Part shown: positions 7,740-37,461 of the stretch, one piece after another
How the letters are laid out: each line of letters starts with the position of its first letter
Numbering within the stretch: the stretch's first letter is position 1
From: Chloroflexota bacterium
Lineage (GTDB): Bacteria > Chloroflexota > Dehalococcoidia > Lucifugimonadales > JADFKI01
Length of the DNA stretch: 64,000 nucleotides
Assembly (NCBI GenBank): GCA_027623195.1
Contig: JAQBUT010000013.1
Coordinates: 13,300-77,299, forward strand
Direction: 5' to 3'
Notes under the pieces: model-generated
The model's database searches: none
Told to the model about the DNA's origin: nothing
What the model saw: only the letters and a program-made list of their open reading frames with translations
Position numbers and translations under genes: made by a program

Positions 7740-7877
7740 TTTATTGTCCTTTCAATTTAGTCTGCTTATCCAGCACGCTGAATCGCAAAACAATTGGTCG
7801 GTCCGCTAAACGATTATGTCCTTGGATTGATATGCAGTTTCTTAAAGGAAGATTGTTTGGCCCATTGATGGAAAAAA

Positions 7878-8516
7878 TTAAACGGTGGTTGCCATGAACT
7901 GCACGGTTCGGTCAGCAATCTCCTGTTCGTGGCCTCTCAGGCTATGATCGGTTTCGGGTATCTCTCTAAACTGAACCGGCTCTCGGACCTCATCTAGTTC
8001 TCGCTGCAACTCCGCCGAGTCCACGATGCGGTCGTTTTGCCCCACTATGAAAAGCTTCGGCCTCTTGTCACCGCGTATGGGGGATGCTTGGACAGCCGAG
8101 ATGGGCGGTGCGATTAAGATCAGGCTTGCAGCGTGCTTGTAGTTCCGCAGTCCCCGCAGTATGACGCCAGCGCCAAAGGAGTAGCCGACCAAGGCAATGC
8201 GCTTCTTATCGATTCCAGGCCAGTTGCGGGCCAGGTTCAGCGCAGCCTTGACGTCTTCCTGCTCCGTCTCCCCGTTGGTGAACTGCCCTTCGCTGCCCTC
8301 GACGCCCCGGAAGTTGAAGCGCAGCGTGGCAATGCCCAATCGGTCCGCGTTGGTGCATATCGCCGTTACGATTGGACTATCCATGTTACCCCGCAGAGTC
8401 GGGTGGGGATGGCAGACCACCAGCATCGGGTAGGGCTGAGCGAAGTCCTCCGGCGTCGACAGTATCCCCTCAAGGGCTGCCTTTTTGCTTTCAAATCCTA
8501 CGGCTGTCTGTCTCAT
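7878..8516 (-). CDS. Alpha/beta hydrolase (COG2945-like)
   Basis: 212 aa with CHPHP...GNMDSPIV, RFNFRGVEGSEG and the nucleophile elbow GYSFGAGV. Confidence 0.8.
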   Translation of the reverse strand: MRQTAVGFESKKAALEGILSTPEDFAQPYPMLVVCHPHPTLRGNMDSPIVTAICTNADRLGIATLRFNFRGVEGSEGQFTNGETEQEDVKAALNLARNWPGIDKKRIALVGYSFGAGVILRGLRNYKHAASLILIAPPISAVQASPIRGDKRPKLFIVGQNDRIVDSAELQRELDEVREPVQFREIPETDHSLRGHEQEIADRTVQFMATTV

Positions 8517-8523
8517 GCCGCCC

Positions 8524-9240
8524 CTACTGCACTTTGCCTTGATATTGCTGGCACAGCCACTCCTGAAAGAAATTGCCGGTCAATTCGCCAATGACGTCCA
8601 GGGAATTTGCAAAAAAATGGTCGGCGCCCTGGATCAGCTCTATCTGCTTTGGGTCCGAGAATCGCTTTGCAAGAAAGCCGAACTGAGCCGCCGGAAAATC
8701 ATGGTCGAACTCGCCGCAGATCAGGAGCTTCGGGTGAAGCATCTCATGGGCGCCCATCTCGTTGAAGACTCGGGAAGGGCAGGCTATGGACGCGATTGCC
8801 TGCGTCACTTCACCGTATGTCGACGCAATTAAGGCCACCGCTGCACCGAAGGAGTACCCAGCCAGCCCTATCCGGCTGGGGTCCACCTCGTCCTGTAAGG
8901 ATAGGAAGCTGAGCGCCTCCACAGCGTCGCTGATTTCACCGGAACCTTCGTCGAAGGAGCCCTCGCTCAGTCCAACGCCACGAAAATTGAAGCGCAGGGC
9001 CGCGATACCCGCCTCGCCAAGGTAGCGCACCAAGGCTGACACCACCGCGTTATCCATGTCGCCACCGTGCCTCGGATGTGGATGGCAGATCACCACTGCG
9101 GGGAGGCTGTCGCCGTCGTTCGGGAGGTGCAGCACTCCCTCCAGGGTTATGTCGCCGTTGGTGAAGCTGATATTTCTCTGTGATTTTGTCATTATTCGAA
9201 AGTTTGGCAAGCCTCTTTTACTGGGCCGCAAGCCAGTCAA
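8524..9240 (-). CDS. Alpha/beta hydrolase (COG2945-like), tandem paralog
   Basis: 238 aa with CHPHPRHGGDMDNAVV, RFNFRGVGLSEG and GYSFGAAVA. An alternative start at ATG 9192 (MTKSQ...) is possible. Confidence 0.8.
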   Translation of the reverse strand: MTGLRPSKRGLPNFRIMTKSQRNISFTNGDITLEGVLHLPNDGDSLPAVVICHPHPRHGGDMDNAVVSALVRYLGEAGIAALRFNFRGVGLSEGSFDEGSGEISDAVEALSFLSLQDEVDPSRIGLAGYSFGAAVALIASTYGEVTQAIASIACPSRVFNEMGAHEMLHPKLLICGEFDHDFPAAQFGFLAKRFSDPKQIELIQGADHFFANSLDVIGELTGNFFQEWLCQQYQGKVQ

Positions 9241-11871: not shown

Positions 11872-12087
11872 TTATACGGACGTACAGAAAACTACTGAGG
11901 TACTCGGTCCGCGTTGTTGACGATTACTTCTGATGGGGCTTCTCCGAGGCCCTGCCTCCGCATTCAAGGTCAGTGGCTCATCATCTCGCTCATGGCCCTG
12001 GTTATAGGGGATGCTTTTCGTCGCTATGGCGACTAGCATTCCACCTAGTATTGCGCCGCCAAGTACTGATGCAAGATACCTTTTCAT
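11872..12087 (-). CDS. Possible small membrane protein (weak)
   Basis: This uses an internal ATG of the 101-aa track ORF (MKRYLASVLGGAILGGMLVAIA...). It lies 13 nt after the SHOCT gene stop, has only a weak RBS, and the C-terminal half looks random. Confidence 0.25.
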   Translation of the reverse strand: MKRYLASVLGGAILGGMLVAIATKSIPYNQGHERDDEPLTLNAEAGPRRSPIRSNRQQRGPSTSVVFCTSV

Positions 12088-12100
12088 TTCGGGCCTGCCT

Positions 12101-12352
12101 TTATGCGTGCCTGATTCCTCCCCGGAGAGAGTCCTGCAACTCCTCAAACTGCTCGGTGGTAATCTCGCCACGAGCAAGTCTTAACCGGAGAATATCCATT
12201 GGGGTCTCTCCGGAATCTGGGGGCGTATTCTTGGAGCTAACGAGTTTGGAGACTCCCCATATACCCAGTCCTATTACCGCGACCCAGAACAGCATCATGC
12301 CCATGCCAAAAAACGGCATCCACCACTGAAATCCTTGCTGAAAACCCCACAT
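12101..12352 (-). CDS. SHOCT-domain small membrane protein
   Basis: 83 aa. An N-terminal TM helix is followed by a C-terminal SHOCT-like segment, DILRLRLARGEITTEQFEELQDSL. Confidence 0.75.
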   Translation of the reverse strand: MWGFQQGFQWWMPFFGMGMMLFWVAVIGLGIWGVSKLVSSKNTPPDSGETPMDILRLRLARGEITTEQFEELQDSLRGGIRHA

Positions 12353-12677
12353 TACCTGCTCCTTCGTGCCCTCGGAGTCATATCTGTATCGGAAGTTCGG
12401 CCTGTTTTAGACTCCGCCAGATGGCGCATTAGCCTAACATCAATTCTCGTCGGTTTGGTATGAAGGAATCATGAGGAAACCGACAAATGCATGAAGATGT
12501 CGTGAAATTCAGGGAATCAGAGGCAAGTTCCTTGAAATGCGCCGCCACTACATAGAGCGCTGCACCGAACGCTTCGCCCCGCCCATGACCGAAGAGGAGG
12601 AGCGAAAGCTTGCGGCGTAGGGCTGCACGGGGGCGAAGTGGTCAGTGGTTACACATGATGGCCGATCGAGGTTGTGT

Positions 12678-13439
12678 TTACTCGCTGCAATCATTGGGCA
12701 ATAGATAATGTGGCAGAATCGGACTGTTAGCTGTCAGCATGATCGTAGAAAGCCACATCAAATGATCAAAGGCAACTGAGTTCGATCGGTATGATTGCCA
12801 ACCTGGAAGTGCTTCCCCTTGCTCATCGACGAGATGAAGTGTACCGCTACCATCGCCGTAGTCAATAACAGAGCCCCTGTCCATAACAAAAATTCCATCG
12901 AGAATTTCGTTTGAAGAAACGGAATTGTCCGACATGTAGCCTTCAACGGACCCTTTTATCGCGTCGAGGCTAACCTGAGATTCAAAGGCAAATATGAACC
13001 AAGGCGGATGACCTAAGAATCTTGAGCTATCATCGCCATTTGACATCAGTATTCCTGTAAAAGGAGCGGCCTGTAACTGTTTGAATCGGCGGGATTTATC
13101 GATGGATTCGGTCAATTCGGTACTTGTCAAATTTGTCTTAATCTCTCCTGCTGCTGATATGCCTTCTATGAAGAATAGACCGGGCTGGTCAGGTGTGAAC
13201 GTAAATGGATGGTCTTCGGTTACGACCACAACGTCGGTTTGTGCCGAAGTATTGCCGTGGCTGTCGATTATCTCCCCATGGCCAATCTCTAGCCTCCGAG
13301 GGAGGTAATCGCGTAAAAATCTGCGAAATGTTTTCTCGACAGATTCTCCTTTGTTTCCGGCATGGTTGAAGGTAGCTCGCACCTCTTCGAGCCGGGCCTT
13401 CATCTGTTTCTCTACCGCATCTATCTTGTCTTTCATCAT
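12678..13439 (-). CDS. Hypothetical protein, PD-(D/E)xK nuclease-like (resembles DUF6602 from memory)
   Basis: 253 aa with a GAGGG RBS 8 nt upstream. An N-terminal coiled segment is followed by G.S.E..FR.FL.DYLP..L.IG.GEIIDS.G..S.QTDVVVV...FFIEG...GEIKT (a D...E.K arrangement). GC is clearly lower than in the flanks. Confidence 0.55.
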   Translation of the reverse strand: MMKDKIDAVEKQMKARLEEVRATFNHAGNKGESVEKTFRRFLRDYLPRRLEIGHGEIIDSHGNTSAQTDVVVVTEDHPFTFTPDQPGLFFIEGISAAGEIKTNLTSTELTESIDKSRRFKQLQAAPFTGILMSNGDDSSRFLGHPPWFIFAFESQVSLDAIKGSVEGYMSDNSVSSNEILDGIFVMDRGSVIDYGDGSGTLHLVDEQGEALPGWQSYRSNSVAFDHLMWLSTIMLTANSPILPHYLLPNDCSE

Positions 13440-13460
13440 GGGAATACCCTCAATTCATCG

Positions 13461-14795
13461 TTAGTGGTCTCTATTCCCATCCCCCCACCAGCGCTTCAAT
13501 CTTTCCGCCACCTCGGGTTCGTAGCCCTGGTCGCCGGGGTTGTAGTAGCGGCGGCCCTTGATGCTCTCGGGCAGGTTCTGCATGGGTGCGAAGTTGTCCT
13601 CGTAGTCGTGGGAGTACTTGTAGCCGTCGCCGTAGCCCATGTCCTTCATCAGGCCCGTGGGGGCGTTGCGCAGGTGCATGGGAACCGGGTCGTTGCGCGT
13701 CTGCTGCACGTCCTCCATAGCCTTGTTTAGCGCCATGTACGAGGCGTTGCTCTTGGGAGCGGTGGCCAGGTAAACCGTTGCCTCCGCCAGGGGAATGCGG
13801 CCCTCCGGCAGGCCAATCAGGTGGTACGCCTGCTGCGCGGCCATTGCCACCGACAGCGCCCGAGGGTCCGCCATGCCAACGTCCTCCGCCGCCAGGATGA
13901 CCAGACGCCGTGCGATGAACATGGGGTCCTCGCCGGCCTCCAGCATGCGTGCCAGGTAGTAGACGGCCGCGTCCGGGTCCGAGCCGCGCACCGACTTTAT
14001 GAAGGCAGATATGGTGTCGTAGTGCTGGTCGCCGCCCTTGTCGTAGCGCAGTGATCGTTGTTGCATGGCATCCTGTATCACCCCGACCGTGATCTTGCGG
14101 ACACCCTGGGCGTCGGGATTCGTGGCCGCCGTAGATAGCTCCAGGGCGTTGAGGGCCGTGCGTGCGTCGCCGTTGGCTAAATTTACGAGAAGGGCTGTGG
14201 CATCCTCGTCCAGCAGAGGTTTGAGGTGAGCCAGGCCCCGCTGAGGCGTTGCAACCGCTTGGGAGATAATCTGAGAAATCTCATCGTCGGTCAGCGATTG
14301 CAGGGCGAAGACCCTGGCACGGGACAGCAGGGGAGACACCACCTCGAAGGAGGGGTTCTCAGTCGTCGCGCCGATGAGCACAAAAGTGCCTTCCTCCACG
14401 AAGGGCAGTATCACGTCCTGCTGTGCCTTGTTGAAGCGATGAATCTCGTCAACGAACAGCACGGTGCGCTGGCCGTGCATGCCCAGGCGCTCCCGGGCCT
14501 CGCCTGCGATGCGTCGTAAGTCGGCCACACCTGACGCCACGCCGCTGACCCTCTCGAACTGGCTCTTCGTTGCCGTGGCGATGAGGTTGGCCAGCGTAGT
14601 CTTCCCCGTGCCCGGAGGCCCCCAGAGGATTATGGAGGGGAGTTGGTCGGACTCGATGCTGCGTCGCAAGACGGTTTCGGGGCCAATGATGTGCTGCTGC
14701 CCCACGTACTCGTCGAAGGTGCTAGGTCGCATCCTGGCAGCCAGAGGGGCCCTGCTCTGCAACTCGCGTTGGCTTTGGTGTTCGAAAAGCGTCAT
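13461..14795 (-). CDS. rarA: Replication-associated recombination protein A (AAA+ ATPase)
   Basis: The start is set at MTLFEHQ (ATG 14795). It has LAARMRP.TFDEYVGQ, Walker A GPPGTGKTT, Walker B LFVDEIHRFNK and the MgsA C-terminal domain. The track ORF extending to 15803 is spurious read-through. Confidence 0.92.
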   Translation of the reverse strand: MTLFEHQSQRELQSRAPLAARMRPSTFDEYVGQQHIIGPETVLRRSIESDQLPSIILWGPPGTGKTTLANLIATATKSQFERVSGVASGVADLRRIAGEARERLGMHGQRTVLFVDEIHRFNKAQQDVILPFVEEGTFVLIGATTENPSFEVVSPLLSRARVFALQSLTDDEISQIISQAVATPQRGLAHLKPLLDEDATALLVNLANGDARTALNALELSTAATNPDAQGVRKITVGVIQDAMQQRSLRYDKGGDQHYDTISAFIKSVRGSDPDAAVYYLARMLEAGEDPMFIARRLVILAAEDVGMADPRALSVAMAAQQAYHLIGLPEGRIPLAEATVYLATAPKSNASYMALNKAMEDVQQTRNDPVPMHLRNAPTGLMKDMGYGDGYKYSHDYEDNFAPMQNLPESIKGRRYYNPGDQGYEPEVAERLKRWWGDGNRDH

Positions 14796-14911
14796 TTCTG
14801 ATGTCCTTAATGATATGTCTAACTGACCTGAGTGTAGCGAAAGCGGCGGCATAGGGGTAGGGGCGGGTTTCGCGGTAGCCTGAACCGTCGCCGTCCCCAG
14901 GTTGCAAACGA

Positions 14912-15997: not shown

Positions 15998-16297
15998 TTA
16001 TTTGAGGTCCGCGATGGTAACGCCGCCGTTGCCCTCACTGGGTGCCGCCGGATGGTGTCGAACGACCAGTGGGTGCTTGGTCAGGAAATCACGGACGGCC
16101 TCCCGCATAGTTCCCGTGCCTTTGCCGTGGATGACCCGAACCCAGGGGTAGCCCGCAATCACGGCGTCGTTCAGGTACCTGTCCAGCTTTTCCAGGGCCT
16201 GGCGAACGGGCATGCGGCGTAGATGAACCTCGGTCTCCACCGAGAGTTGGCTTAGTAAACGGGACTGTGGCTGGTCTTTCCTTGGCTTGGGATTCAT
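15998..16297 (-). CDS. Smr-domain protein
   Basis: 99 aa. VHLRRMPVRQALEKLDRYL......VRVIHGKGTGTMREAVRDFL matches the Smr domain pattern. The start ATG overlaps the selA stop (ATGA at 16294-16297). Confidence 0.8.
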   Translation of the reverse strand: MNPKPRKDQPQSRLLSQLSVETEVHLRRMPVRQALEKLDRYLNDAVIAGYPWVRVIHGKGTGTMREAVRDFLTKHPLVVRHHPAAPSEGNGGVTIADLK

Positions 16298-17697
16298 GAG
16301 CCAACCAGCGCATTGGAGACGACCGCAAGCAGGGCGTCTTCCTCCTCGGGCAGGACAGTTCGAGGGTCTAGCAGCACGCGCTCGTCCTCGATGCGGCCAA
16401 TTACCGGGGTGTCGCCCTCTCGCAAAGCCTTGGCCAGAGCCTCAGCGCCGCCAGTCCTGTTGCGACAGTCGATCGCCAACGCCCATGAGTCGATGGTCTC
16501 TCCCGGCAGGCTGCCCCCGCCTATGGTGGACATGGCCTTTTCTACGGATGCGGCACCGCCTATTCTGGCCTGCCAGCGCTCAGCTTTGGCAGCGGCCTCG
16601 CTCTCTGACATGGAGATCATTCGCCAGATGGGCACCTTATCCACTGCCTCGCCCTTGATGTAGTGGAGGACTGTCGCCGCCAGGGCCGCCATGCTCATCT
16701 TGTCGATGCGCACCGCTCGGGCCAGCGGGTGCCGCGCCACGATGTCTATAAGCTCGCGCTTCCCCGCGATGATGCCCGCCTGAGGGCCACCAAGCAGCTT
16801 GTCGCCTGAGAAGAAGCCCAGCCCGACGCCCGCCTGAACGCTCTCCTGGGGCATAGGCTCGTGGGCAATGCCGTATGCCGCCGTGTCCAGCAGGCAACCG
16901 CTGCCAAGGTCGTGCAGCACAGTGACACCACGTTGTGCGCCTAGCTCTACTAACTCGGCTAACTCAGGCGCGTGGGTGAAGCCCATGACACGAAAATTGC
17001 TTGCGTGAACGGCCAGTATCGCGCCGGTGTTCTCCGTGATTGCAGCCTCGAAGTCGCGGGCGTAGGTGCGGTTGGTGGTGCCAACCTCGACTAGCGTAGC
17101 GCCGCTCTGACGCAGCACGTCCGGAACGCGAAAGCCGCCGCCGATCTCCACAGCCTCGCCCCGCGAGACTATGACCTCCTTGCCAACGGCCAGCGCCGCC
17201 AGCCCCAGCATGAGAGCGGAGGCGTTGTTGTTTACCACTAGGGCTGCCTCGGCGCCCGTGACCTCTGCCATCAGGTTGGATATGTGCGCCTGCCGGGAGC
17301 CGCGCCTGCCGGTATTCAGGTCCAATTCCAGGTCGCTATAGCCCAGGGCTGCGCGTCGGGCGGCGTCGGTGGCCTCCTGGCTCAATGGAGCGCGTCCCAG
17401 GTTTGTGTGCAGTATGACGCCAGTGGCGTTAATGACGTGGGTGGGCCACTCTCGCCAGTTGGTCTCGGCGCTCTCCTCGATGGCCTGCACCAGCCTGTCG
17501 AAGTCTGGCGCAGCGTACCCATCAAGGATAGTCTGGCGGGCTGCGTCGATTTCCGAGCGCACAAGGTCTACCACGACCTTTCGGGAGTATTTTTGGACCA
17601 GCATTTCCACGCGGTCGTCGGAGAGGACTTTTTCGACGCTGGGAAGAGACTTAAATTTTGAGGTCATCTTTTGAGGTCTCGAGCTTTCTGAATTCAT
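16294..17697 (-). CDS. selA: L-seryl-tRNA(Sec) selenium transferase
   Basis: The start is set at ATG 17697, behind GGGAGAG. It has SLPSVEKVL, NATGVILHTNLGRA and a PLP-fold segment, SGDKLLGGPQAGII. The resulting 467 aa is typical for SelA. Confidence 0.9.
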   Translation of the reverse strand: MNSESSRPQKMTSKFKSLPSVEKVLSDDRVEMLVQKYSRKVVVDLVRSEIDAARQTILDGYAAPDFDRLVQAIEESAETNWREWPTHVINATGVILHTNLGRAPLSQEATDAARRAALGYSDLELDLNTGRRGSRQAHISNLMAEVTGAEAALVVNNNASALMLGLAALAVGKEVIVSRGEAVEIGGGFRVPDVLRQSGATLVEVGTTNRTYARDFEAAITENTGAILAVHASNFRVMGFTHAPELAELVELGAQRGVTVLHDLGSGCLLDTAAYGIAHEPMPQESVQAGVGLGFFSGDKLLGGPQAGIIAGKRELIDIVARHPLARAVRIDKMSMAALAATVLHYIKGEAVDKVPIWRMISMSESEAAAKAERWQARIGGAASVEKAMSTIGGGSLPGETIDSWALAIDCRNRTGGAEALAKALREGDTPVIGRIEDERVLLDPRTVLPEEEDALLAVVSNALVGS

Positions 17698-17844
17698 ATT
17701 GCTGCTCTCCCTATTATAACCCTGTCTCCTCAATTCACCTTCGCCACTATTTACGTAAGTGACCAACAGCGTAAACATCAGTTGTGTTGACCCTATTTCG
17801 GCTGCTTGATAGAATGGGTTGAATTTGCCCAATGACAGGAATTT

Positions 17845-18465
17845 ATGTTCGTAATCGGATTAACAGGAGGCATTGGGACAGGCAAAACTCAGGTATCTGA
17901 AATGCTGGAGAAGCTGGGTGCGGCCATAGTCAATGCCGACCTTTTGGGTCATCAGGTGTACTTGCCGCAATCAGAGGGCTGGCGTGAGGTGGTAGACACC
18001 TTCGGCCAGGAGATCTTGACCCCCGAGGGTGAGATAGATCGAAGGAAACTGGGGCCCATTGTTTTTGGCGACCCAGAGGCCCTCAACAAGCTTAACGCCA
18101 TTACGCATCCTAAAATCCACGGACTGGCTGAGGATAGCCTTAGGAGGCTGGCCGAACAGGGCAGGGAGGTGGCGGTTCTGGAAGCAGCCCTGCTAATCGA
18201 GGCTAAGTGGACAGGCCTGGTGGATGAGGTCTGGGTGACCACCGCCCCAGTGCAGGATGTGGTCAGGAGAATACAAGAGCGAAACGGCTTGGATGAAGAG
18301 GCTATACGCTCTAGAATTTCTTCTCAGATGCCCCAGGAAGAACGAGTAACCCACGCCGACGTAATCGTAGAGAACGCTGGCGATCTTATCGAGCTAGGGA
18401 ACAAAATTCAAGAACTGTGGGACCGCAGAGTTGCGACTCATAAGGAGAGTAGACGTAAGAGATGA
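17845..18465 (+). CDS. coaE: Dephospho-CoA kinase
   Basis: 206 aa with the P-loop [12 protein letters not shown] and typical CoaE length and layout. Confidence 0.9.
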
Positions 18466-19352
18466 CTCAGAGTACGACAACACTTTTTCGCAGCTACCTC
18501 ATCGAAGAGTATCACCTAACGGAAGAGCCATACTACAAGCCCGTCGGCGACGAGATAGAGCTTTTCGAGGCTGCATATAAACAGAAGATTCCCCTGATAT
18601 TTAAGGGCCCCACGGGCTGCGGTAAGACGCGATTCGTAGAATATATGTCCTACAGGTTGGGCCAGACTTTAACCAAGGTTAAGCAGACTGGAGACGATGG
18701 GGCGCCTCGCGCCGGTAACATACCGCTGGTCACCATTGCCTGCCACGAAGACCTGACTTCCAGCGACCTCGTGGGCCGTTACCTGTTGGAGGGCGACTCC
18801 ACAGTATGGATCGACGGGCCACTAACGCGTGCGGTCAAGGTTGGCGGCATCTGCTACCTGGATGAAATTGTAGAGGCCAGGAAGGACACCACCGTCCTGA
18901 TCCACCCTCTAACGGACCACAGGCGCATTCTTCCCGTGGAGAAGAAAGGGGAGTTGCTGGAGGCCGCTGAAGGCTTCCTGCTGATTCTGTCTTATAACCC
19001 TGGTTACCAGAGCGCACTGAAGGACCTGAAGCACAGCACGCGCCAGCGTTTCGTTTCCATTGAGTTCGACTACCCGCCCCGAGATATCGAGGCGGAGATC
19101 GTCGAGCACGAGTCTGGCGTGGACAAAGACATGGCTATGCAACTAGCCAAGCTGGGCGAGAAGGTGCGTAACCTTAGAGAGCATGGTCTCGGCGAGGGCG
19201 CCAGCACGCGCCTGCTTATCTACGCGGGCAAGCTCATCTCACAGGGCATTGCCCCACGGCGGGCCTGCCAGGTGGCCGTGAACTGGGCAGTGACCGACGA
19301 TCCTTCCGTACAGAAGAGCATCGAAGAGTTGATCGGCAGTATTTTCGAATAA
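18462..19352 (+). CDS. CbbQ/NorQ/NirQ-type MoxR AAA+ ATPase
   Basis: 296 aa. [83 protein letters not shown] and ASTRLLIYA match the CbbQ/NorQ consensus closely. The start overlaps the coaE stop (ATGA). Confidence 0.9.
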
Positions 19353-19441
19353 GAACGTTAACAGGGGACATTGAGGATTGGCGTTGCGGGCTTGCTCGGC
19401 ACCCCGATCCTCAGTGCCCTGTCAGCGTCAACCATTGAAAG

Positions 19442-20068
19442 GTGAAATCGTCTGTGACAGGGCAACCAGTACCGGACCTCATACGACGCATCCTTTCTGA
19501 GAATCCTCACAAGTCCTTAAGTGATCCCTCTCTCACTCCAGCCGGGGTGACGCTTCTGCTCTACCCCAAAGACGGCCTGCACTGCGTCCTTTTGCAAAAA
19601 AGGTCCCAGTTGGTGGAGCACCACAAGGGGGAAATCTCCTTTCCAGGTGGCATGAAGGACGCAACCGATGTGGACCTCCAATACACGGCCCTGCGAGAGG
19701 CTCACGAAGAGATGGGTATTCTCCCCGAGCACATAGAGGTGCTAGGCCAGGTGGACGATGTATCCACGATCTCTAATTTCGTCGTAAGTACGTTTGTGGG
19801 GACAATACCGTATCCCTACGAGTTCACGACCAGCGATGTAGAGGTAGCCGAGGTTCTGGAAGTCCCGCTGAATAACCTGATGGATAGGGCTAACAGGCGT
19901 GACGAAGTACGTCTAGTAAATGGTAAACTAAACTATGCTCCGGTTTTCGCCCATCAAGGGCACATAATATTTGGGGCAACCGCTAAAATTTTGGACCAGT
20001 TCCTAGCATTGCTGGAGAACGCTCCCCATAAGGAGGCCCCGTGGCTGAAACATCAGCTCCCAAGATAG
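19442..20068 (+). CDS. Nudix hydrolase, CoA pyrophosphatase-like (NudL/Nudt7 type)
   Basis: 208 aa. VLLQKRSQLVEHHKGEISFPGG fits the CoA-Nudix flank LLTxR[SA]x3[RK]x3Gx3FPGG with the correct spacing and two substitutions. The Nudix box is GGMKD......ALREAHEEMGI. The start is uncertain (GTG 19442 or GTG 19454). Confidence 0.8.
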   Translation: MKSSVTGQPVPDLIRRILSENPHKSLSDPSLTPAGVTLLLYPKDGLHCVLLQKRSQLVEHHKGEISFPGGMKDATDVDLQYTALREAHEEMGILPEHIEVLGQVDDVSTISNFVVSTFVGTIPYPYEFTTSDVEVAEVLEVPLNNLMDRANRRDEVRLVNGKLNYAPVFAHQGHIIFGATAKILDQFLALLENAPHKEAPWLKHQLPR

Positions 20069-23000
20069 AAGAAATAAGGGCTGAACTGGCGAAATTTCCC
20101 TCCTCCGTTCTGGAAGAGTTCGAAAAGGCGCTTTTGAAGATGCCCGATAACCTCACTGAGCCGCAGCTAGCGGACTGGGCGGGCGCAGGACGGGACCTTG
20201 CTCAAAAGACGGTTCGCTCCTGGGAGGCATCTGCTCAGTATTTCAAGGTGAGTCCATCGGTTCTGGGCTTTATGCCGCTGAACTACTTCTTCAAGTGGAC
20301 AGACTGTGGTCAGGCCTTGTGCGCGGAGTCGCCAACACTGGCCGCTGCGTTCTTCGAGGCCAGCCCCGGCACTATGAGCAAATTGCGGTCCCGCCACATC
20401 GAGAGTTGGTCGGGGCTCGGTCGAAGCCTTTATAAAGGAACTTGGAAGTCCAGCACATTGGCCTGCAAGTTCTTTCAGTCCAGTCCCGTTCTACTGGAAC
20501 ACCTGAGCTTTCCAGAGCTGGAGCGCTTTGCTTCGTTCCTGGACTCTCTGTCTCACCGCTCATATGATCTTGCATCCGAGTGCCTGACGCTGGGCCAGGG
20601 GATATTCCCGCTTATTGGCGAGGACCGAGCGGCGTTCATATCGCTGGCCTCCACGCTGGTGGAAACCGGATGGCGCGAGGTCAAGAGCTTCTTCGAGGCG
20701 GGTTCACGAGCGCTACCCCGCGTAGAGAGTGGGCAGCGCCTGCGCTTCCTTAAAATGGCGGAGCAGCTAGTCAAGAACGGCGGCACGAATATCCCTGGCG
20801 TCATGTTGGAAATATCCAAAGCCCTGTCTCAGATAGAGCCTCACCAGCATGCCCATATATTGGGATTGGGTGAGGCGCTGATGGTGCATTCGGCCCTTGC
20901 GGTCCCCGAGTTCATCAAAGCCTGCCCCCAGGCCCTGGAAAAAGTAACCATGTCTCAGTTGGAGAAGTGGTTCTCCGAAGGGGTGGGGATTTTGGAGCAG
21001 AACCAGGACGGTGGTTTGGCCTACTTCAAGATGGAGTCTGCCCGTTCAGAAGAGATTCTGGAAGGGCTCTCCTCAGGTGTTGAATACGGTCGCATCAAGG
21101 ACGTGATGGAGATGTACTGCCGTGCCATGGCGGGCGCTGACATAAAGCTTGCCGAGGCCGTTGACCTGGTAGAAAAGAACATAGGTTGGGTCTCCAATGA
21201 GGCTCCCTCCACTGAGGGCACCACGGTGTTTGTGCCTTCCCTGGTGGATAAGTACGGTTCCAAATCCGACAACTTCTCCTGGTACAAGGTCGTATCCACG
21301 CACCAGGTAGCGCATATCGAGTTTGGTAGCTTTATTTTCGATTTTGATACGCCGTCTATTTTCTTTACGGACCGACGACAGGAGCTGGAGCAGCAGAAGG
21401 TACAGATGCCTGAAGGTTCCCGCCAGGAAATGCCTGAGGTGGATTCAGAGAGCGTCGAGCATGCGTGGGTGACGGATGCGCAACGCTTTTTTGACCTGTT
21501 CGAAGATAGGAAGCTGGCACTGGACATCTACACGGTCGTGGAAGACGCACGTCTGGATGCCAGGGTTAAGGTCGAGTATCCGGGCATACGCTTGGGGTAC
21601 GACCTGATTCAAACCAGTTCCCTTCACGAGCGCCCGGAGATTACCGATATGCCCGTAAGGGAGGCGCTGGTAGAATTTCTCGTGCGCCTGAGTCTGAACC
21701 AGTACAACGGGATACCTGCCCCGGAGCAGTTCGTGGACGAGGCGAAAGAGGTGGGCCGAATAATGCAGCAGGTGCTCAGGCCCGAAGCAACCATACAGGA
21801 TACGGCGGAGGCTTCGCTGCGAATTTACGCTATTATCGCCCAGATTCCCAACGAGGAGGTCCCTACGGAGGACTGGGAAGATGTCGATATGGACGATACC
21901 CAGAACGAGGAGTATCAGGACCCCGACGATATGGAGCAGCTCCTGCAGCAGATCTCTATGGGCATGGAAATGGAGATGAGGCCCGACAGCGAGCAGGAGT
22001 ACGACTCGACTGAAAACGTCGAGTTTAGGGGCGACTTCAAGCCCGAGCTGGTCCAAATGCTGACCGAGCTTCGCAGGCAGCAAAAGGAGGGTGGTTCCAC
22101 CGACGGAGAGCCGATCTCCCAGGAACAACTGGAGGAACTACTGAAGAACAGTGCAGAGTTGGAACTCCAGGCAACCCAGGGTGAGCTTCAGGAGTCCAGC
22201 AATATGATGGCCAACAACCTGATGAAAGAGGCCGGCCTAGACATGCCTCAGTCGCCTGAGTACGGCAAGGGGCCACTGGTGCATGTGGATGAGGACGGTG
22301 GCGCGTTGGAGGCAAACGAGCCACAGACCTTTGTTTACGACGAGTGGGACTTCCGTGCGGATGATTACAAGCCTCGCTGGTGCATCGTCCGTCAGAAGAC
22401 GATGGCAGAGGGCGATCCCACCTACTACAGTTCGACTCTGACCAATTACGGTGGCCTTGTCACGCAGATCCGACGTCAGTTCGAGATGATGGTGCCGGAG
22501 AATTTCCAGAAGGTTCGCAAGCTGGAAGATGGCGAGGAGATAGACATCGACGACCTCATAGAGGCGGTGGTGGACAGGAAGACTGGCGCCAGCCCTAGCG
22601 ATAAGTTCTACTGGCGGCGGAACAAGGTCCAGCGCGATGTGGCGGTGGCTTTCCTTCTGGACACCAGCGCATCGACAGCGGAGGCTATAGACGACGCCAA
22701 GAAGTCGCCTGACGACTGGGATGCCCCGGACGACCCCGTCGAGTACATGGTCTGGCTCAGGACTCGCCGAGGAGAGGCGATGCGTCGCTCCTACAAGCGC
22801 ATCATCGACGTCGAGAAGGAGGCGATTGTTCTTCTAATCAACGCCTTGGAGGCCATCGGCGACCTGTACGGCATATACGGGTTCAGCGGTTACGGTCGGG
22901 AGAACGTGGAGTTCTACACGATCAAGGACCTGGACGAAAACTTCTCAGAGAGAGTGAAGAAGCGCATCGACAGGGTTGCGCCGCTACATGCCACCCGCAT

Positions 23001-23322
23001 GGGCCCAGCCATTCGGCATACAACGTACAAGCTGGACAAGCAGGACGCGCGGACCAAGTTGATGTTCCTGATTAGCGATGGTCGTCCCCAGGACAGGGGC
23101 TACAGCCGTGAGGGCGTGGAGAAGGAATACGCAGTCCACGACACCAAGATGGCTCTGGACGAGGCAAAGGCTAAAGGTATTCAGTCCTTCGCGCTGACAG
23201 TGGACAAGAATGGCCACGACTACCTAAAGAATATGTGTGATGATATGGGCTACGAGGTATTGGACGACATCTACGAGTTGCCGTCCCGCCTGCTGTACCT
23301 GTATAAGAAGCTGACGATGTAG
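20041..23322 (+). CDS. CbbO/NorD-like protein with C-terminal von Willebrand factor A domain
   Basis: 1093 aa. GTG 20041 lies 4 nt after AGGAGG (20031-20036). It has N-terminal helical repeats, an acidic linker, the YDEWDFR...W motif, and a VWA domain with MIDAS residues (LLDTSAS, ISDGRPQD). Confidence 0.8.
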   Translation: MAETSAPKIEEIRAELAKFPSSVLEEFEKALLKMPDNLTEPQLADWAGAGRDLAQKTVRSWEASAQYFKVSPSVLGFMPLNYFFKWTDCGQALCAESPTLAAAFFEASPGTMSKLRSRHIESWSGLGRSLYKGTWKSSTLACKFFQSSPVLLEHLSFPELERFASFLDSLSHRSYDLASECLTLGQGIFPLIGEDRAAFISLASTLVETGWREVKSFFEAGSRALPRVESGQRLRFLKMAEQLVKNGGTNIPGVMLEISKALSQIEPHQHAHILGLGEALMVHSALAVPEFIKACPQALEKVTMSQLEKWFSEGVGILEQNQDGGLAYFKMESARSEEILEGLSSGVEYGRIKDVMEMYCRAMAGADIKLAEAVDLVEKNIGWVSNEAPSTEGTTVFVPSLVDKYGSKSDNFSWYKVVSTHQVAHIEFGSFIFDFDTPSIFFTDRRQELEQQKVQMPEGSRQEMPEVDSESVEHAWVTDAQRFFDLFEDRKLALDIYTVVEDARLDARVKVEYPGIRLGYDLIQTSSLHERPEITDMPVREALVEFLVRLSLNQYNGIPAPEQFVDEAKEVGRIMQQVLRPEATIQDTAEASLRIYAIIAQIPNEEVPTEDWEDVDMDDTQNEEYQDPDDMEQLLQQISMGMEMEMRPDSEQEYDSTENVEFRGDFKPELVQMLTELRRQQKEGGSTDGEPISQEQLEELLKNSAELELQATQGELQESSNMMANNLMKEAGLDMPQSPEYGKGPLVHVDEDGGALEANEPQTFVYDEWDFRADDYKPRWCIVRQKTMAEGDPTYYSSTLTNYGGLVTQIRRQFEMMVPENFQKVRKLEDGEEIDIDDLIEAVVDRKTGASPSDKFYWRRNKVQRDVAVAFLLDTSASTAEAIDDAKKSPDDWDAPDDPVEYMVWLRTRRGEAMRRSYKRIIDVEKEAIVLLINALEAIGDLYGIYGFSGYGRENVEFYTIKDLDENFSERVKKRIDRVAPLHATRMGPAIRHTTYKLDKQDARTKLMFLISDGRPQDRGYSREGVEKEYAVHDTKMALDEAKAKGIQSFALTVDKNGHDYLKNMCDDMGYEVLDDIYELPSRLLYLYKKLTM

Positions 23323-23352
23323 GGCGGTTCGCTGAATATTAGGAAACTGGAC

Positions 23353-23388
23353 AAAAAAGGAGTCGCCTGAAGGCGACTCCTTTTTTTC
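23353..23388. terminator. Bidirectional rho-independent terminator
   Basis: AAAAAA-GGAGTCGCC-tgaa-GGCGACTCC-TTTTTTT: a perfect 9-bp GC-rich stem with a tetraloop, an A-run on one side and a T-run on the other. Confidence 0.85.
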
Positions 23389-23593
23389 TTATAGTGCAGC
23401 GTCGTTCGGGATTCCAGCGCTTAGCAAGCGAAGCAAACCATATTCAACAAATCATGTTAAGTCATCGAAATATAGCTAAACTTATGCTGAAAGCGTAATA
23501 TAATTACGAGGAATGGGTGTTGGGTAAAGAGAGGGCACTTCAACGAGCTTCAATCGCGCGTATTGCCAACGAGATTCGCAAAGGGGGTAGCAA

Positions 23594-24658
23594 ATGTCGT
23601 TAAAGGTTGGAAACCTAGAACTGTTCATGGGGCCTAAACAGGCCGGAGGGCCAGACGATCTTGAGAAGGTTATCGTCGACTTCATTTCCAAGGCGACCAG
23701 GCGTCTGGATATAGCGGTGCAGGAGTTGGATTCCAGGCCCATAGCGGACGCCATCATCGCAGCCCGCCAACGAAAGGTGACCGTTCGCCTGGTTTTGGAA
23801 GGCGATTACCTTTCATCCACAAGGCGGCGCTCGGACCCTTACGTGGCCGGGGGACCCCACGAACCCAATCGCGAGATACATGCAGCGATGTTGAGGACGG
23901 CCATCAATGTAAAGTCGGACTACAACCCACATATATTCCATCAAAAGTTCATTGTTAGGGATAATGAGACCGTCCTGACAGGCTCAACAAATTTCACTCA
24001 AACGGGAGTGTCCAGCAACCTTAACAACGTGGTGATAATTCAGGACACGGATATCGCTAAGATTTACGGCCGCGAGTTTCGAGAAATTATGCAGGGGCAC
24101 TTCGGGAATCTCAACGAAGGTCACGACGCAAAGCCGCCGGAAAAGACAGTCTCCGGAATTCCATTAAAAGTATTGTTCGCCCCCGACCACGCCCCAGAGA
24201 TGGAGATCATGAAGCAGATGCTTAAGGCCAAAAATCGCATCGACTTCGCGGTGTTTACTTTCGCTGAGTCATCGGGAATCGATGATGCAATGCTCAGCGT
24301 GGCGGCTGGAGGGATAAAGATAAGAGGAGCCTTGGACGGCCTAAGCTCCAACAGTAAATGGGCGGCCACACATGGTCTGGCGGGTAAGGCCAACATCGAA
24401 CTTTTCAACGTTCGGAAGCAGACCACCGTTAACAAGCTGCACCATAAGCTTATGGTCATTGATGAGCGTGTGGTGATAGTCGGTAGCTTCAACTATACGG
24501 GGCAAGCTAACAGATTGAACGACGAGAATATTATCGTCTTGGGAGACTTGCGAGATGACGTATCTCAAACGTCCAAGAATAACCAGGAAAAAGTGGGGAA
24601 ATTTGCCTTGGACGAAATAGACCGTATCGTTCAGCAATTTGGCAGCGCCATAATTTAG
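23594..24658 (+). CDS. Phospholipase D / HKD-nuclease family protein with two HKD motifs
   Basis: 354 aa with a GGGGG RBS 6 nt upstream. The two HKD motifs are HQKFIVRDNETVLTGSTNFT and HHKLMVIDERVVIVGSFNYT...NDEN. There is no signal peptide or TM segment. Confidence 0.85.
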   Translation: MSLKVGNLELFMGPKQAGGPDDLEKVIVDFISKATRRLDIAVQELDSRPIADAIIAARQRKVTVRLVLEGDYLSSTRRRSDPYVAGGPHEPNREIHAAMLRTAINVKSDYNPHIFHQKFIVRDNETVLTGSTNFTQTGVSSNLNNVVIIQDTDIAKIYGREFREIMQGHFGNLNEGHDAKPPEKTVSGIPLKVLFAPDHAPEMEIMKQMLKAKNRIDFAVFTFAESSGIDDAMLSVAAGGIKIRGALDGLSSNSKWAATHGLAGKANIELFNVRKQTTVNKLHHKLMVIDERVVIVGSFNYTGQANRLNDENIIVLGDLRDDVSQTSKNNQEKVGKFALDEIDRIVQQFGSAII

Positions 24659-24708: not shown

Positions 24709-25104
24709 TCAGGCCTGAAAAACCGTCGCCTCGCCTTTGAGGACCTCGTCGCCGGACTGGTTCTTGATGCTGATGTCTAGCTTGGCGATGCTGCGCCGGT
24801 TACTGGCCGACGTTACCGTTGCCTCGGCCATGATGGTGTCGCCGATGTATACAGGCTTTGGGAAGCTCCAGTTCTGACTCAAGAAGACGGTGCCAGGGCC
24901 TGGCATGTCCATGGCAACCATCGCGTGCAGAAGTCCCGTGGTTATGCCGCCCTGGCATATCAGCCCATCGAACCTGGTGTTGCTGGTGAACTCCTCGTCG
25001 AAGTGCAGGGGATTGTAGTCGCCAGTGATTTCAGCGTAGGACTGCACCATTTCCTTGGTGACTGTCATTTCCCGTTGAGCTTTCTGTCCGACTTCAAGAT
25101 CCAT
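24709..25104 (-). CDS. MaoC-like (R)-specific enoyl-CoA hydratase/dehydratase
   Basis: The start is set at MDLEVGQ (ATG 25104). YAEITGDYNPLHFDEEF is the hot-dog-fold hydratase motif. Confidence 0.85.
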   Translation of the reverse strand: MDLEVGQKAQREMTVTKEMVQSYAEITGDYNPLHFDEEFTSNTRFDGLICQGGITTGLLHAMVAMDMPGPGTVFLSQNWSFPKPVYIGDTIMAEATVTSASNRRSIAKLDISIKNQSGDEVLKGEATVFQA

Positions 25105-25235
25105 GATTCTTTTCCTATTCCCGTGTTCCCACCCGTGAGCCCTCAGCAAATCACAGGGCTTGGGTATAGCCCCTAGTCTTTGGCGCATCTAGGTTGATAT
25201 GTCTCCAACGATTGCGTTCCCAAGGCAATCCAATC

Positions 25236-35195: not shown

Positions 35196-35283
35196 TTAGT
35201 GGGGCGTTCGTGAGAGCGCCTCGCTTGTTGTCAGTAGCGTGTGCGGTAACAAACGGTCGGCGCGCTGCAAGACATCACAATGC

Positions 35284-35381
35284 GGGGGCGAATGCGCTCC
35301 GGTGGGTACCACGGACTTCAAATCCGATGGTCCGGGCCCTGCGGTTCGGACGGTGGGTTCGACTCCCTCTCGCTCCCGCCA
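35284..35381 (+). tRNA. selC: tRNA-Sec (anticodon TCA, reads UGA)
   Basis: 98 nt. An 8-bp acceptor stem pairs GGGGGCGA with TCGCTCCC (one G-U), followed by discriminator G and an encoded CCA. The D-arm segment CTCCGGTGGG is present. The anticodon loop is CTTCAAA with TCA at 35318-35320. A long variable arm and the T-loop GGTTCGACTCC complete it. Several segments match E. coli selC as I remember it. Confidence 0.9.
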
Positions 35382-35736
35382 ATAAGCCATGGTTACAGTG
35401 CGCCGTAAGCTTGTTGGATTCGTCTTCGGGCGAACACCTTCAGTAAGTGGCCCTGTCGTCTGCTACTACTTCTAGCAACGTCAGGAAGGTGGCAAGGTTT
35501 CTTAACTGCGGTCGCACCTGGAACATCCCATCCACCACTCCATCGTCATGGCGCACTAAGTTAGGTAACTCACCCCTCACGACTCCTACCCTCCTTCGTG
35601 TTTGCTCCGAAATCTCGGACGGTTGCCGCTGTTCTTTGCAAGCCGCGCTCTATTGTTACAATGTGCCTCTCCATGGCGTATATAGGCGTATGTAAGGTTG
35701 GATTAACGGACGAGATGTAGTTTCTGAGGTAAAGCC

Positions 35737-36396
35737 ATGGAGAACGCTGTGGAGAAGCCAAAGCGAGCGCGGCATCATACCGGACCGCCACCTGGGCAGG
35801 TCTGGCGAACGGAAATGAAGACTGGACATCCTAGGGCCCTTCTTACCACCGTGCAGGGGACATTAGAAGATGAAGGCTTTGCGGTGCCCGATGGCCCCGT
35901 ATACTCCGACGAGGCGGCGCCTATTCGGGACACAAGTTACTTCACAGGAACCGTTACGGGTATCATCGACAATAGAGTAATCAGATGGTGGATGGTTGCC
36001 GTTTCGATATTCCTGATTCCTGTGCTTATAGGAATTTGGCTACTGATAAGAGAATTTCGCTGGGAACGGACGAAAATTGAGCTTTCAGTAGAAGGCGAGA
36101 CTTACTGGGCCGGTGCCACTGGCGAAGAAAGGTCTGAACAGTTCAGGAGCGAAATGGAAAGATCAGGGGTCGTGAGCGATGTCAGGTGCAGGTTGACTAT
36201 GCAGGTAGGCTACGCCATGGAAGAGGATGGCGTGAGGCAAAGCCTCAAGGGCAGGGCATGGCACCCCGAAGAGCTAAGTCGTAACTTGGTAACGGCTATA
36301 CAGAATCGGGTACCCAATCTTGTTCTGGAATCTCCTAATTCAACTCCTCAATTTATTGAAGCTGCAAATTCGTTGCCTCAGCTAGGTAGCGGTTGA
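35737..36396 (+). CDS. Hypothetical single-pass membrane protein
   Basis: 219-aa ORF with one clear TM (WWMVAVSIFLIPVLIGIWLLI) and low GC (about 40% in a 120-nt hand count). I recognised no family. The start is uncertain (ATG 35737 or the MKTGH Met). Confidence 0.4.
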   Translation: MENAVEKPKRARHHTGPPPGQVWRTEMKTGHPRALLTTVQGTLEDEGFAVPDGPVYSDEAAPIRDTSYFTGTVTGIIDNRVIRWWMVAVSIFLIPVLIGIWLLIREFRWERTKIELSVEGETYWAGATGEERSEQFRSEMERSGVVSDVRCRLTMQVGYAMEEDGVRQSLKGRAWHPEELSRNLVTAIQNRVPNLVLESPNSTPQFIEAANSLPQLGSG

Positions 36397-36534
36397 GATT
36401 CTATTCCGACGATCGCCATGGCACTCCCGAAAGATAAGCTCTGACGCACAATGCCGCTTTCCAATCCGGGCTTGAAAATGCAAATGTCTCGTTAATAAAC
36501 CCTCTTTTTAGGCCCCATATTTCGGATAATCAAT

Positions 36535-36558
36535 CCGACATATGACCCGACATATGAC
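36535..36558 (+). repeat. Perfect tandem 12-mer, CCGACATATGAC x2
   Basis: Direct reading of the sequence gives 36535-36546 identical to 36547-36558. Each unit contains the palindrome CATATG. The repeat lies 33-45 nt upstream of the SDR gene start candidates. Confidence 0.9.
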
Positions 36559-36590
36559 TGACGAGACGAAGCTATTTGATATGACGGTAC

Positions 36591-37376
36591 TTGGAGATCG
36601 ATTTGAGACTTGAAAACAAGGTTGCGCTGATCACCGGCGCGGCGTCTGGAATGGGCCGTGCTGCGGCGGAGTTATTTGCTGCCGAGGGCGCCAAGGTAGT
36701 CATGCTAGGCCGACGTCAGGCGCAGGGCGAGGAAGTTGCCGGAGTGATTACTGCCAACGGCGGGGACGCTATCTTCGTTCGCGCGGATATCTCAGTGGAA
36801 GATGACGTGCGCCGGGCCGTGGAAGCGGCTGTAGGCAAATACGGCAAGCTGGACGTTCTTTTTAACAACGCTGGGATCAATAAGACTGCCCAGGGACGGC
36901 CCGACGAAGAGCCCACCGATAGCTGGGACCAGATTATGGGAGTGAACCTTCGCGGGGCTTACTTCTGTATCAAAAACGCAGTGCCGGAGATGCGGAAGGC
37001 AGGCGGCGGGTCAATCATCAACAACTCGTCGGTGCTGGATAGCCAGGCAGATGACAACTCGGCAGCCTCGTACCACGCCTCAAAGGGGGGACTCACCGCT
37101 TTGACGTTGAAATGCGCAGTCGTCTACGCCGAGGACAACATCAGGGCCAACTGCATTCAGCCAGGAGCCATTGCGACGGAGATGTCCAGAATTACCTGGG
37201 ACAACCTTGACGATCCGGATCTGATAGAACGGCGAAGCAAGGCCCAGCCCTTGAAAAGAATGGGACACCCCATGGATGTCGCCTATGCGGCCCTCTATTT
37301 TGCTTCTGACGAATCGGCCTTCGTTACGGGCGCCACCCTGCTGGTGGACGGCGGGCAGAGCGCGTCTTACAGGTAG
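36591..37376 (+). CDS. Short-chain dehydrogenase/reductase (SDR)
   Basis: 261 aa with ALITGAASGMGRA, NNAG and the catalytic YHASKGG. The start is either TTG 36591 or TTG 36603 (GGAGA RBS 5 nt upstream). Confidence 0.9.
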   Translation: MEIDLRLENKVALITGAASGMGRAAAELFAAEGAKVVMLGRRQAQGEEVAGVITANGGDAIFVRADISVEDDVRRAVEAAVGKYGKLDVLFNNAGINKTAQGRPDEEPTDSWDQIMGVNLRGAYFCIKNAVPEMRKAGGGSIINNSSVLDSQADDNSAASYHASKGGLTALTLKCAVVYAEDNIRANCIQPGAIATEMSRITWDNLDDPDLIERRSKAQPLKRMGHPMDVAYAALYFASDESAFVTGATLLVDGGQSASYR

Positions 37377-37385
37377 GAAACACAC

Positions 37386-37423
37386 AAAAAAAATGAACGC
37401 CGTTCAAACGGCGTTCATTTTTG
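37386..37423. terminator. Bidirectional rho-independent terminator
   Basis: AAAAAAAA-ATGAACGCCG-ttcaaa-CGGCGTTCAT-TTTT sits between the convergent SDR gene and the small membrane protein gene. Confidence 0.85.
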
Positions 37424-37461
37424 TACCCTTTAGGTCAGAACCTCTTGATTGGCCCCTTGTG

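Follow-up and report, generated by a model that had tools for sequence, protein, structure and literature searches.

We analysed a stretch of 64,000 nucleotides (hereafter, the window) of contig JAQBUT010000013.1, from the genome of an uncultured Dehalococcoidia/SAR202 bacterium (Chloroflexota) recovered from aquatic metagenomes. It carries four same-strand genes, with a promoter-like site ahead of the first and a strong terminator behind the last. They encode a dephospho-coenzyme A (dephospho-CoA) kinase (CoaE), a MoxR AAA+ ATPase of the CbbQ/NorQ type (named here Q), a Nudix hydrolase and a very long VWA protein (named here O) with a metal-ion-dependent adhesion site (MIDAS) (Table 1). An earlier reading of the same DNA, made from the letters alone (hereafter, the original prediction), had placed the four open reading frames (ORFs) at the coordinates that we find and had proposed a client-remodelling system linked to CoA or nucleotide chemistry. 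Domain and profile comparisons show that the unit encodes a predicted remodelling machine of the CbbQO/NorQD class.

Table 1 Features of the coaE-Q-Nudix-O unit, in window coordinates. JGI, Joint Genome Institute; pLDDT, predicted local distance difference test score; dG, folding free energy.
Feature	Position	Strand	Basis or remark
Promoter-like site: TTGACC, 17-nt spacer, TG-TAGAAT	17787..17815	+	~30 nt 5′ of coaE, in the region divergent from selA
coaE, dephospho-CoA kinase, 206 aa	17845..18465	+	PF01121, TIGR00152
Q, CbbQ/NorQ-type MoxR AAA+ ATPase, 296 aa	18462..19352	+	AAA_5 + CbbQ_C
Q-Nudix spacer hairpin, long and stable	19353..19429	+	Folding dG/z
Nudix hydrolase, CoA-diphosphatase type, 208 aa as listed (GTG 19442)	19442..20068	+	PF00293
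O, VWA/MIDAS protein, 1093 aa	GTG 20041 to 23322	+	ORF; JGI gene call on an identical contig agrees
O residues 1-345, all-helical repeat array, recurring (A/S)xxYFxxSPxxL motif	20041..21075	+	Model pLDDT >90 over most
O residues 345-640, conserved middle domain	21073..21960	+	Invariant H421, Q422, E501, R504, Y513, G515
O residues 641-762, acidic D/E-rich linker, mostly disordered	21961..22326	+	pLDDT mostly <70
O residues 763-787, beta-hairpin TFVYDEWDFRADDYKPRWCIV	22327..22401	+	Model strands 763-770, 775-787
O residues 865-1093, VWA with complete MIDAS, and C-terminal tail LPSRLLYLYKKLTM	22633..23322	+	PF00092 (VWA match at 926-1069)
Bidirectional intrinsic terminator closing the unit	23353..23388	.	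dG -25.1 kcal/mol, z = -6.9

The coaE stop codon and the Q start codon overlap in an ATGA (18462-18465). O starts at a GTG four bases 3′ of AAGGAGG, so that its 5′ end shares 28 nt with the end of the Nudix gene. The unit is closed by a perfect GC-rich hairpin between A6 and T7, and none of 200 shuffled sequences folded as stably. These three elements agree with the original prediction, the O start being also that of the JGI gene call and the terminator being borne out by folding. On the other hand, the Nudix start at GTG 19454 is favoured, as the JGI gene call for the identical contig gives a protein of 204 residues and orthologues begin near the same residue. Therefore, the gap between Q and Nudix is more likely 101 nt, not 89 nt as first proposed. 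The promoter-like site agrees with 10 of 12 consensus positions and has an extended -10 TG; it is a consensus match only, and shuffled sequence gives comparable numbers of sites.

Judged from its sequence, Q is an AAA+ ATPase of the CbbQ/NorQ type, the family named in the original prediction, and is catalytically intact. An AAA_5 domain (PF07728, 1.6e-28) is followed by a CbbQ_C domain (PF08406, 2.7e-30), both above their cut-offs, and the Walker A (GPTGCGKT) and Walker B (YLDE) motifs are invariant in the alignment. Searches against the PDB matched CbbQ (5c3c, 4.5e-104) and NorQ (9qhd, 1.5e-90). Q is 53% identical to the CbbQ encoded beside form I Rubisco in Cereibacter and 51% identical to the Agrobacterium NorQ from a norCBQD cluster; residues 70-88 form a variable insertion, a loop that CbbQ and NorQ lack. 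The assignment of CoaE is equally clear in the profile searches (PF01121 at 2e-51; TIGR00152 equivalog at 169 bits for a cut-off of 65.6), and its P-loop is visible in the translation.

For O, an AlphaFold2 model was built from a 45-sequence alignment (mean pLDDT 80.6). Residues 763-1092 align with NorD residues 342-631, including the hairpin, the MIDAS and the C-terminal tail (hhalign E-value 1.2e-44). Foldseek with the model retrieved the NorD VWA domain (9qh6_G, 1.6e-14) and the MIDAS of MDN1 (1.8e-5). The MIDAS residues D874, S876, S878, T985 and D1013 are invariant or nearly so, and the hairpin contains six invariant residues (Y766, E768, W769, Y776, W780, C781). As compared to NorD, the VWA domain has a 33-residue insertion C-terminal to the DxSxS motif. 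The conserved hairpin 763-787, which lies within the stretch aligned with NorD, would by comparison with the NorQD structures be the finger that enters the Q pore, and finger-in-pore coupling is then expected between Q and O.

N-terminal of residue 753, O gave no alignment with NorD. Residues 217-426 align with CbbO residues 57-263 (hhalign probability 96.4%, E-value 1.2e-9), a comparison made with a single frameshifted CbbO as reference. This reference is encoded on a Cereibacter sphaeroides plasmid (CP031752.1; locus L100, 3712-5945), 3′ of cbbL-cbbS-cbbQ and without listed annotation. It reads as two overlapping frames of 406 and 364 residues, either a true frameshift or a sequencing error. 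Since its N-terminal part aligns partly with CbbO and not with NorD, O looks like a CbbO-like adaptor with large additions rather than a NorD orthologue. The PF00092 match, together with the NorD and CbbO homology, agrees with the class proposed for O in the original prediction. The unusual length noted there is also real: O has 1093 residues, as compared to 632-646 for NorD and about 745 for Rubisco-linked CbbO, an excess of about 350-450 residues. The part that precedes the finger/VWA module accounts for about 750 residues in O versus about 340 in NorD.

Within the N-terminal ~800 residues of O, for which the original prediction had advised a Foldseek search, residues 1-345 had no Pfam match and no meaningful fold match in the PDB, and the middle domain alone gave nothing by Pfam or Foldseek. 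One conserved helix, LAxDIFTxVEDxRID, weakly matches the CobT N-domain (E-value 0.04-0.09), with Pfam CobT at E-value 0.48. A zincin-like middle domain, prompted by H421-Q-x-x-H425 and by the term ‘M48C domain’ used for the CobT N-domain, was considered and set aside as a weak lead: H425 occurs in only 32 of the 45 sequences, Pfam gave no match, and Foldseek on a domain-only model (pLDDT 83.5) found nothing below E-value 3.8.

The Nudix protein (PF00293 at 5.6e-12) resembles CoA pyrophosphatases. Against the corresponding NCBIfam model, NF007980, it scores 96.7 bits (1.3e-27) and thus falls short of the cut-off, 134. In the PDB, each of its best matches is a CoA diphosphatase: NUDT7 (8e-15), the Deinococcus radiodurans enzyme 1nqy (4e-14) and 9nxm, deposited as Nudix hydrolase 11 (5e-13). 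The CoA-type motif VLLQKRSQLVEHHKGEISFPGG keeps the exact spacing of LLTxR[SA]x3[RK]x3Gx3FPGG with two substitutions (T to Q, R/K to E), as had been read from the sequence at the outset, and both this motif and the downstream Nudix box REx2EE are conserved in 66 orthologues.

At the level of the locus, Q-O is an orphan, with no Rubisco or nor gene beside it. Pfam annotation across the whole window found no Rubisco, nor or cox gene, in agreement with the original prediction. A tblastn search with RbcL, RbcS, NorB and NorC gave no match in the window, in 83 related genomic loci or in 80 metagenome loci; for the genomic loci, the negatives cover neighbourhoods of +/-10 kb flanks each. Hence, no Rubisco or nor operon is consistently adjacent in relatives (~160 loci), an arrangement that would have told against the original prediction. 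Likewise, no cox-type Pfam family occurs among the annotated neighbours of the related loci. Clustering of ORFs in the 80 metagenome loci recovered no recurrent neighbour other than Q, CoaE, Nudix and CinA, and none for the sublineage that has Q-O only. The genes that recur around the unit in close relatives have housekeeping roles (SelA, MgsA, CinA, an ABC transporter, transaldolase, UvrB).

These negatives bear on the alternative in which Q-O is an ordinary CbbQO Rubisco activase or NorQD and its client is encoded at another site in the genome. The 51-53% identity of Q to CbbQ and NorQ and the CbbO homology of O residues 217-426 speak for it. So does the label ‘NorD’ that JGI gives to relatives. 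In databases, the protein is named ‘VWA domain-containing’, ‘hypothetical’ or, by transfer, ‘NorD’. Against it stand the lack of RbcL, RbcS, NorB and NorC in the window and in ~160 loci, the N-terminal region of O, which does not align with NorD, the ~350-450 additional residues, and the near-universal occurrence of the long-O family in the clade. In addition, a survey of SAR202 genomes that tabulates RubisCO for each metagenome-assembled genome (MAG) reports, for the described SAR202 MAGs, only reductive tricarboxylic acid cycle genes and form II CO dehydrogenase operons (PMC11411561). We consider this alternative highly improbable. From the gene neighbourhood we infer a client other than Rubisco and cytochrome c nitric oxide reductase (cNOR), and we see no sign of CO dehydrogenase either; the client is probably new, rather than any of those so far known.

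The O family was found in 315 GTDB species genomes, and the best 80 of these, on which all counts for close relatives rest, are labelled Dehalococcoidia, Chloroflexota or SAR202. Among the best 150 representatives of 50%-identity clusters, about 70 are at least 1,000 residues long. Conservation of the gene order, which the original prediction had proposed to examine, is nearly complete: coaE-Q-Nudix-O is kept in every one of the 80 species loci with sufficient flank, save two that read coaE-Q-O without Nudix, and coaE adjoins Q-O in all 76 genome loci whose flank extends to it. Among the 80 related species, identity is 77-89% for Q and only 43-69% for CoaE.

More distant loci are more informative. 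At about 30-40% identity in O and with wholly different flanks (electron transfer flavoprotein, ribosomal protein, his genes), coaE-Q-(Nudix)-O is kept in four loci (L089, L090, L091, L094). Six others (L092, L095, L101, L102, L106, L108) have the rearranged order PHP-Q-O-coaE, with coaE downstream. The named members of this second clade are Candidatus Tectomicrobia MAGs, and their CoaE is also above the TIGR00152 cut-off (161 bits). The two arrangements form separate clades in a rough tree. Of 47 metagenome loci with informative flank, coaE adjoins Q-O in 35, on the upstream side in 29 of them and on the downstream side in 6, and the other 12 contain Q-O alone; coaE adjoins in 6 of 10 further loci obtained from individually chosen distant O proteins. 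Since coaE is kept both with changed flanks and with a rearranged order in a second clade, its link to Q-O goes beyond regional synteny.

All named relatives are MAGs. The sole cultured organism found with a relative is Miltoncostaea oceani, which carries it on a 46.6-kb plasmid (NZ_CP064358.1; locus L088, record 35210-38920). There, Q is followed by a 362-residue hypothetical protein and a 548-residue VWA protein, so that O appears split or frameshifted; the locus has no coaE, and its plasmid neighbours are genes for a thiolase, a DUF35 protein, an acyl-CoA synthetase, a ketoacyl-synthase-like protein and a thiamine pyrophosphate enzyme.

The position held by Nudix is filled differently across lineages. 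A YfcE-family phosphodiesterase occupies it in L127, L134 and L169, the first two being above the family cut-off, and a PHP/CehA-like metallohydrolase gene is located directly 5′ of Q in the Tectomicrobia-named clade. The Nudix gene, regarded at first as a full member of the unit, is thus conserved in nearly all close relatives but optional beyond them, with YfcE or PHP in other lineages. Other genes are also found inserted in the unit: one resembling the alpha subunit of ADP-forming acetate-CoA ligase (463 residues) between Q and Nudix (L125, 1951-3342; L157, 545-1936), a PhyH-family dioxygenase gene between Nudix and O (L089, 4733-5713), and a PhnB-like gene (PF06983) between Q and Nudix in 12 species (for example, L004, 8837-9304). 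The first two of these can be related to CoA and are counted in favour of the CoA link.

The recurrence of metallohydrolases raises the possibility that Q-O is a metal-loading chaperone for the neighbouring phosphoesterase, as NorQD is for cNOR. All three phosphoesterase families require divalent metals and directly adjoin Q or O. To our knowledge, small hydrolases of the Nudix, YfcE and PHP families need no insertases. Moreover, the operon lacks a phosphoesterase gene in about half of the loci linked to coaE, and a 1093-residue adaptor conserved at 63-80% would have to serve non-homologous clients. Although NorQD, CoxDE and CobST do act in metal insertion (PMC13036017; bioRxiv 10.64898/2026.07.21.739949), these points leave metal loading of the phosphoesterase quite improbable.

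Overall, the presence of three unrelated phosphoesterase families, together with coaE in two gene orders, argues for a functional tie of Q-O to CoA and adenine-nucleotide chemistry. The gene neighbourhood suggests, in particular, coupling to the 3′-phospho-ADP end of coenzyme A. The link of Q-O to CoA or nucleotide chemistry is plausible but unproven. We give an even chance to the explanation in which Q-O is a CbbQO/NorQD-class machine functionally coupled to CoA chemistry. From the original proposal of a CoA-linked remodelling system, this retains the class of Q and O, the orphan locus and the coaE link, and gives up Nudix as a fixed partner.

In such a machine, Q would form a hexamer, by homology with the NorQD and CobST structures. 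One O molecule would put its finger into the Q pore and dock its tail on the ring, and it would hold the client both through the MIDAS and through the N-terminal module. Driven by ATP hydrolysis, the acidic linker would then twist and stretch, and the client would be opened. More speculatively, the client could be a CoA- or dephospho-CoA-binding enzyme, either with a trapped nucleotide ligand or awaiting cofactor loading; it may be CoaE itself, the one neighbour that is constant, or an enzyme encoded elsewhere. The phosphoesterase might dispose of the freed ligand and CoaE restore CoA. In its boldest form, this model would make Q-O the first AAA+ ‘activase’ for CoA metabolism, which would free CoaE or another CoA-binding enzyme locked by a tight or damaged CoA-type nucleotide, with Nudix, YfcE or PHP destroying the ligand. 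It would be the cofactor-level counterpart of Rubisco activase and CbbY. This version, built by analogy, is unlikely.

Several observations weigh against coupling to CoA chemistry. In bacteria, coaE often shares operons with unrelated genes, so a shared transcript need not mean a shared function. Among close relatives in SAR202, synteny extends over the entire +/-10 kb, which makes the conservation in 80 loci weak evidence when taken alone. Q-O or O occurs without coaE in the 12 metagenome loci mentioned above and in L086, L087 and L088, and Nudix is missing from 14 of the 29 metagenome loci with coaE upstream. The PHP and YfcE proteins are assigned only at the level of the family, and the O tree is a quick neighbour-joining tree with no support values. 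The evidence for the coupling consists of sequence, neighbourhood and predicted structure, which leaves the assignment of a client speculative.

In the main rival explanation, Q-O matures or repairs a metalloenzyme encoded elsewhere, coaE and the phosphoesterase being housekeeping passengers on the transcript. Several sublineages indeed have Q-O without coaE, Nudix is dispensable, unrelated genes are inserted (the PhnB-like gene in 12 species, PhyH), and the region is broadly syntenic in close relatives. In addition, form II CO dehydrogenase operons are found elsewhere in SAR202 MAGs (PMC11411561). Against this, coaE still adjoins Q-O when the other flanks change and when the order changes in the second clade, and the recurrence of three unrelated phosphoesterase families beside Q-O is hard to ascribe to chance. 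Furthermore, known MoxR-VWA pairs mostly adjoin their client. We therefore regard passenger status of coaE and the phosphoesterase as possible but doubtful.

The Q-Nudix spacer contains a further element, a near-perfect hairpin (dG -42.5 kcal/mol, z = -4.6) with none of 200 shuffles as stable. It is not followed by a U-tract, has no Rfam match and no second copy in the window, and its sequence is not conserved past the closest relative; a similar hairpin is found in L031 (an 88% relative) and a different one in L021. It could mark a site of processing or stability at which the expression of Q is set apart from that of Nudix-O. Over 17-24 kb, Rfam returned nothing except a sub-threshold match on the terminator, to the alphaproteobacterial small RNA BjrC1505 (23353-23468, minus strand; 26.4 bits for a gathering score of 50, E-value 0.075). 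As this match overlies the terminator, it is probably driven by the terminator hairpin. The sequencing runs found to contain this sequence are DNA metagenomes only, with no RNA run. In an otherwise identical contig from an ENA assembly (L002), O reads as two ORFs of 432 and 519 residues (12007-14864) and SelA is also split (7819-9236); these are most likely assembly frameshifts, not real pseudogenes.

Upstream of the unit, SelA (selenocysteine synthase; 15998-17832, minus strand) is divergent from coaE, and a gene for an Smr-domain protein overlaps its end. The position of SelA is kept in about 60 of the 80 related species (L004-L083), which implies selenoprotein use in the lineage. Farther upstream, between an MgsA-type ATPase gene and a major facilitator superfamily transporter gene, a 253-residue DUF6602 protein (12678-13439, minus strand) matches the PADLOC models for PD-(D/E)xK (2e-31) and for a NucC-type nuclease effector (2e-21); no obvious partner genes are found nearby. 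Downstream, an AT-rich segment (23389-23593) precedes a gene for a phospholipase D (PLD)-family protein with two HKD motifs (23594-24658, plus strand) that has sub-threshold similarity to DISARM DrmC and to NucT. Beside it lies a MaoC dehydratase gene (24709-25188), present in only three related loci, in two of them directly after O. In relatives, CinA is usually located directly 3′ of O, and the PLD insertion looks lineage-specific and outside the unit.

Two of these neighbours could be taken for parts of a defence or conflict system, with the MoxR-VWA pair as sensor and Nudix or PLD as effector, an alternative already raised in the original prediction. The two-HKD PLD gene with its DrmC similarity and the NucC-like nuclease gene 4.4 kb upstream fit this view. 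The PLD gene is absent from 80 of 80 related loci, and no PADLOC model matches CoaE, Q, Nudix or O; both facts make a defence role unlikely. Nor does the operon resemble a mobile defence island: its surroundings are stable and of housekeeping type, and it is kept at 63-89% identity in hundreds of species. Of all explanations considered, defence has the slightest chance.

MoxR-VWA pairs are widespread and very few of their clients are known: Rubisco, cNOR, CO dehydrogenase and chelatases, the targets of RavA-ViaA being disputed. The long-O family is large and, as the contrast in identity between Q and CoaE indicates, under strong constraint, in a lineage that, according to the literature, is very abundant in dark ocean waters. 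Identifying the client would extend the list of enzymes that are repaired or matured at the expense of ATP and, if the CoA link is true, would bring to light a hitherto unrecognised level of quality control over cofactors. In the literature searched, no paper ties coaE or SAR202 to CbbQ, NorQ or MoxR. The partnership of a CbbQO-like pair with coaE and a phosphoesterase is not described there, although the motor-adaptor machine type itself is already known.

Among known systems, CbbQO has several features in common with Q-O. Q has the identity to Rubisco-linked CbbQ given above and the same AAA_5 + CbbQ_C architecture, O residues 217-426 align with the one frameshifted CbbO used as reference, the VWA/MIDAS is at the C-terminus of O, and CbbO is sister to the whole long-O clade in the rough tree. 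However, O exceeds CbbO by ~350 residues, with additional helical repeats at its N-terminus and a more extended middle region and linker; the variable loop of Q has no counterpart in CbbQ; coaE and phosphoesterase genes are the partners in the operon; and Rubisco genes are absent near Q-O in ~160 loci. NorQD, which inserts FeB into cNOR, also has a closely related ATPase (51% identity). The hairpin, the MIDAS and the C-terminal tail of O align with NorD, and NorD VWA structures are the best Foldseek matches. The NorQD structures show the finger of the VWA protein inserted in the AAA+ pore and the C-terminus of NorD in contact with the ring (PMC13036017). In contrast, the N-terminal 750 residues of O do not align with NorD, O carries the 33-residue insertion, and no norCB is found near Q-O.

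The CobST pair of the aerobic cobaltochelatase CobSTN follows the same motor-adaptor logic, in which a disordered linker connects an N-terminal domain to a VWA domain whose shaft is inserted in the ring (bioRxiv 10.64898/2026.07.21.739949). A conserved helix in the middle domain of O resembles the CobT N-domain, a marginal similarity, but Q, with its CbbQ_C domain, does not belong to the CobS type, and no cobN occurs near Q-O. Acidic or disordered linkers equivalent to that of O are known in NorD, CobT and Midasin (PMC13036017; bioRxiv 10.64898/2026.07.21.739949). The Nudix enzyme, for its part, shares the Nudix box and the spacing of the upstream CoA motif with the CoA diphosphatases NUDT7, E. 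coli NudL and D. radiodurans DR_1184, but differs from them by its score below the NCBIfam equivalog cut-off (96.7 versus 134) and by its two CoA-motif substitutions. Finally, Midasin/Rea1, the eukaryotic pre-60S remodeller, consists of one giant polypeptide in which six AAA modules are fused, and its clients are ribosome assembly factors. It nevertheless has features in common with Q-O: Q matches the Midasin AAA_5 modules at ~5e-35, the O VWA domain matches the MDN1 MIDAS, and in both an acidic linker precedes the MIDAS.

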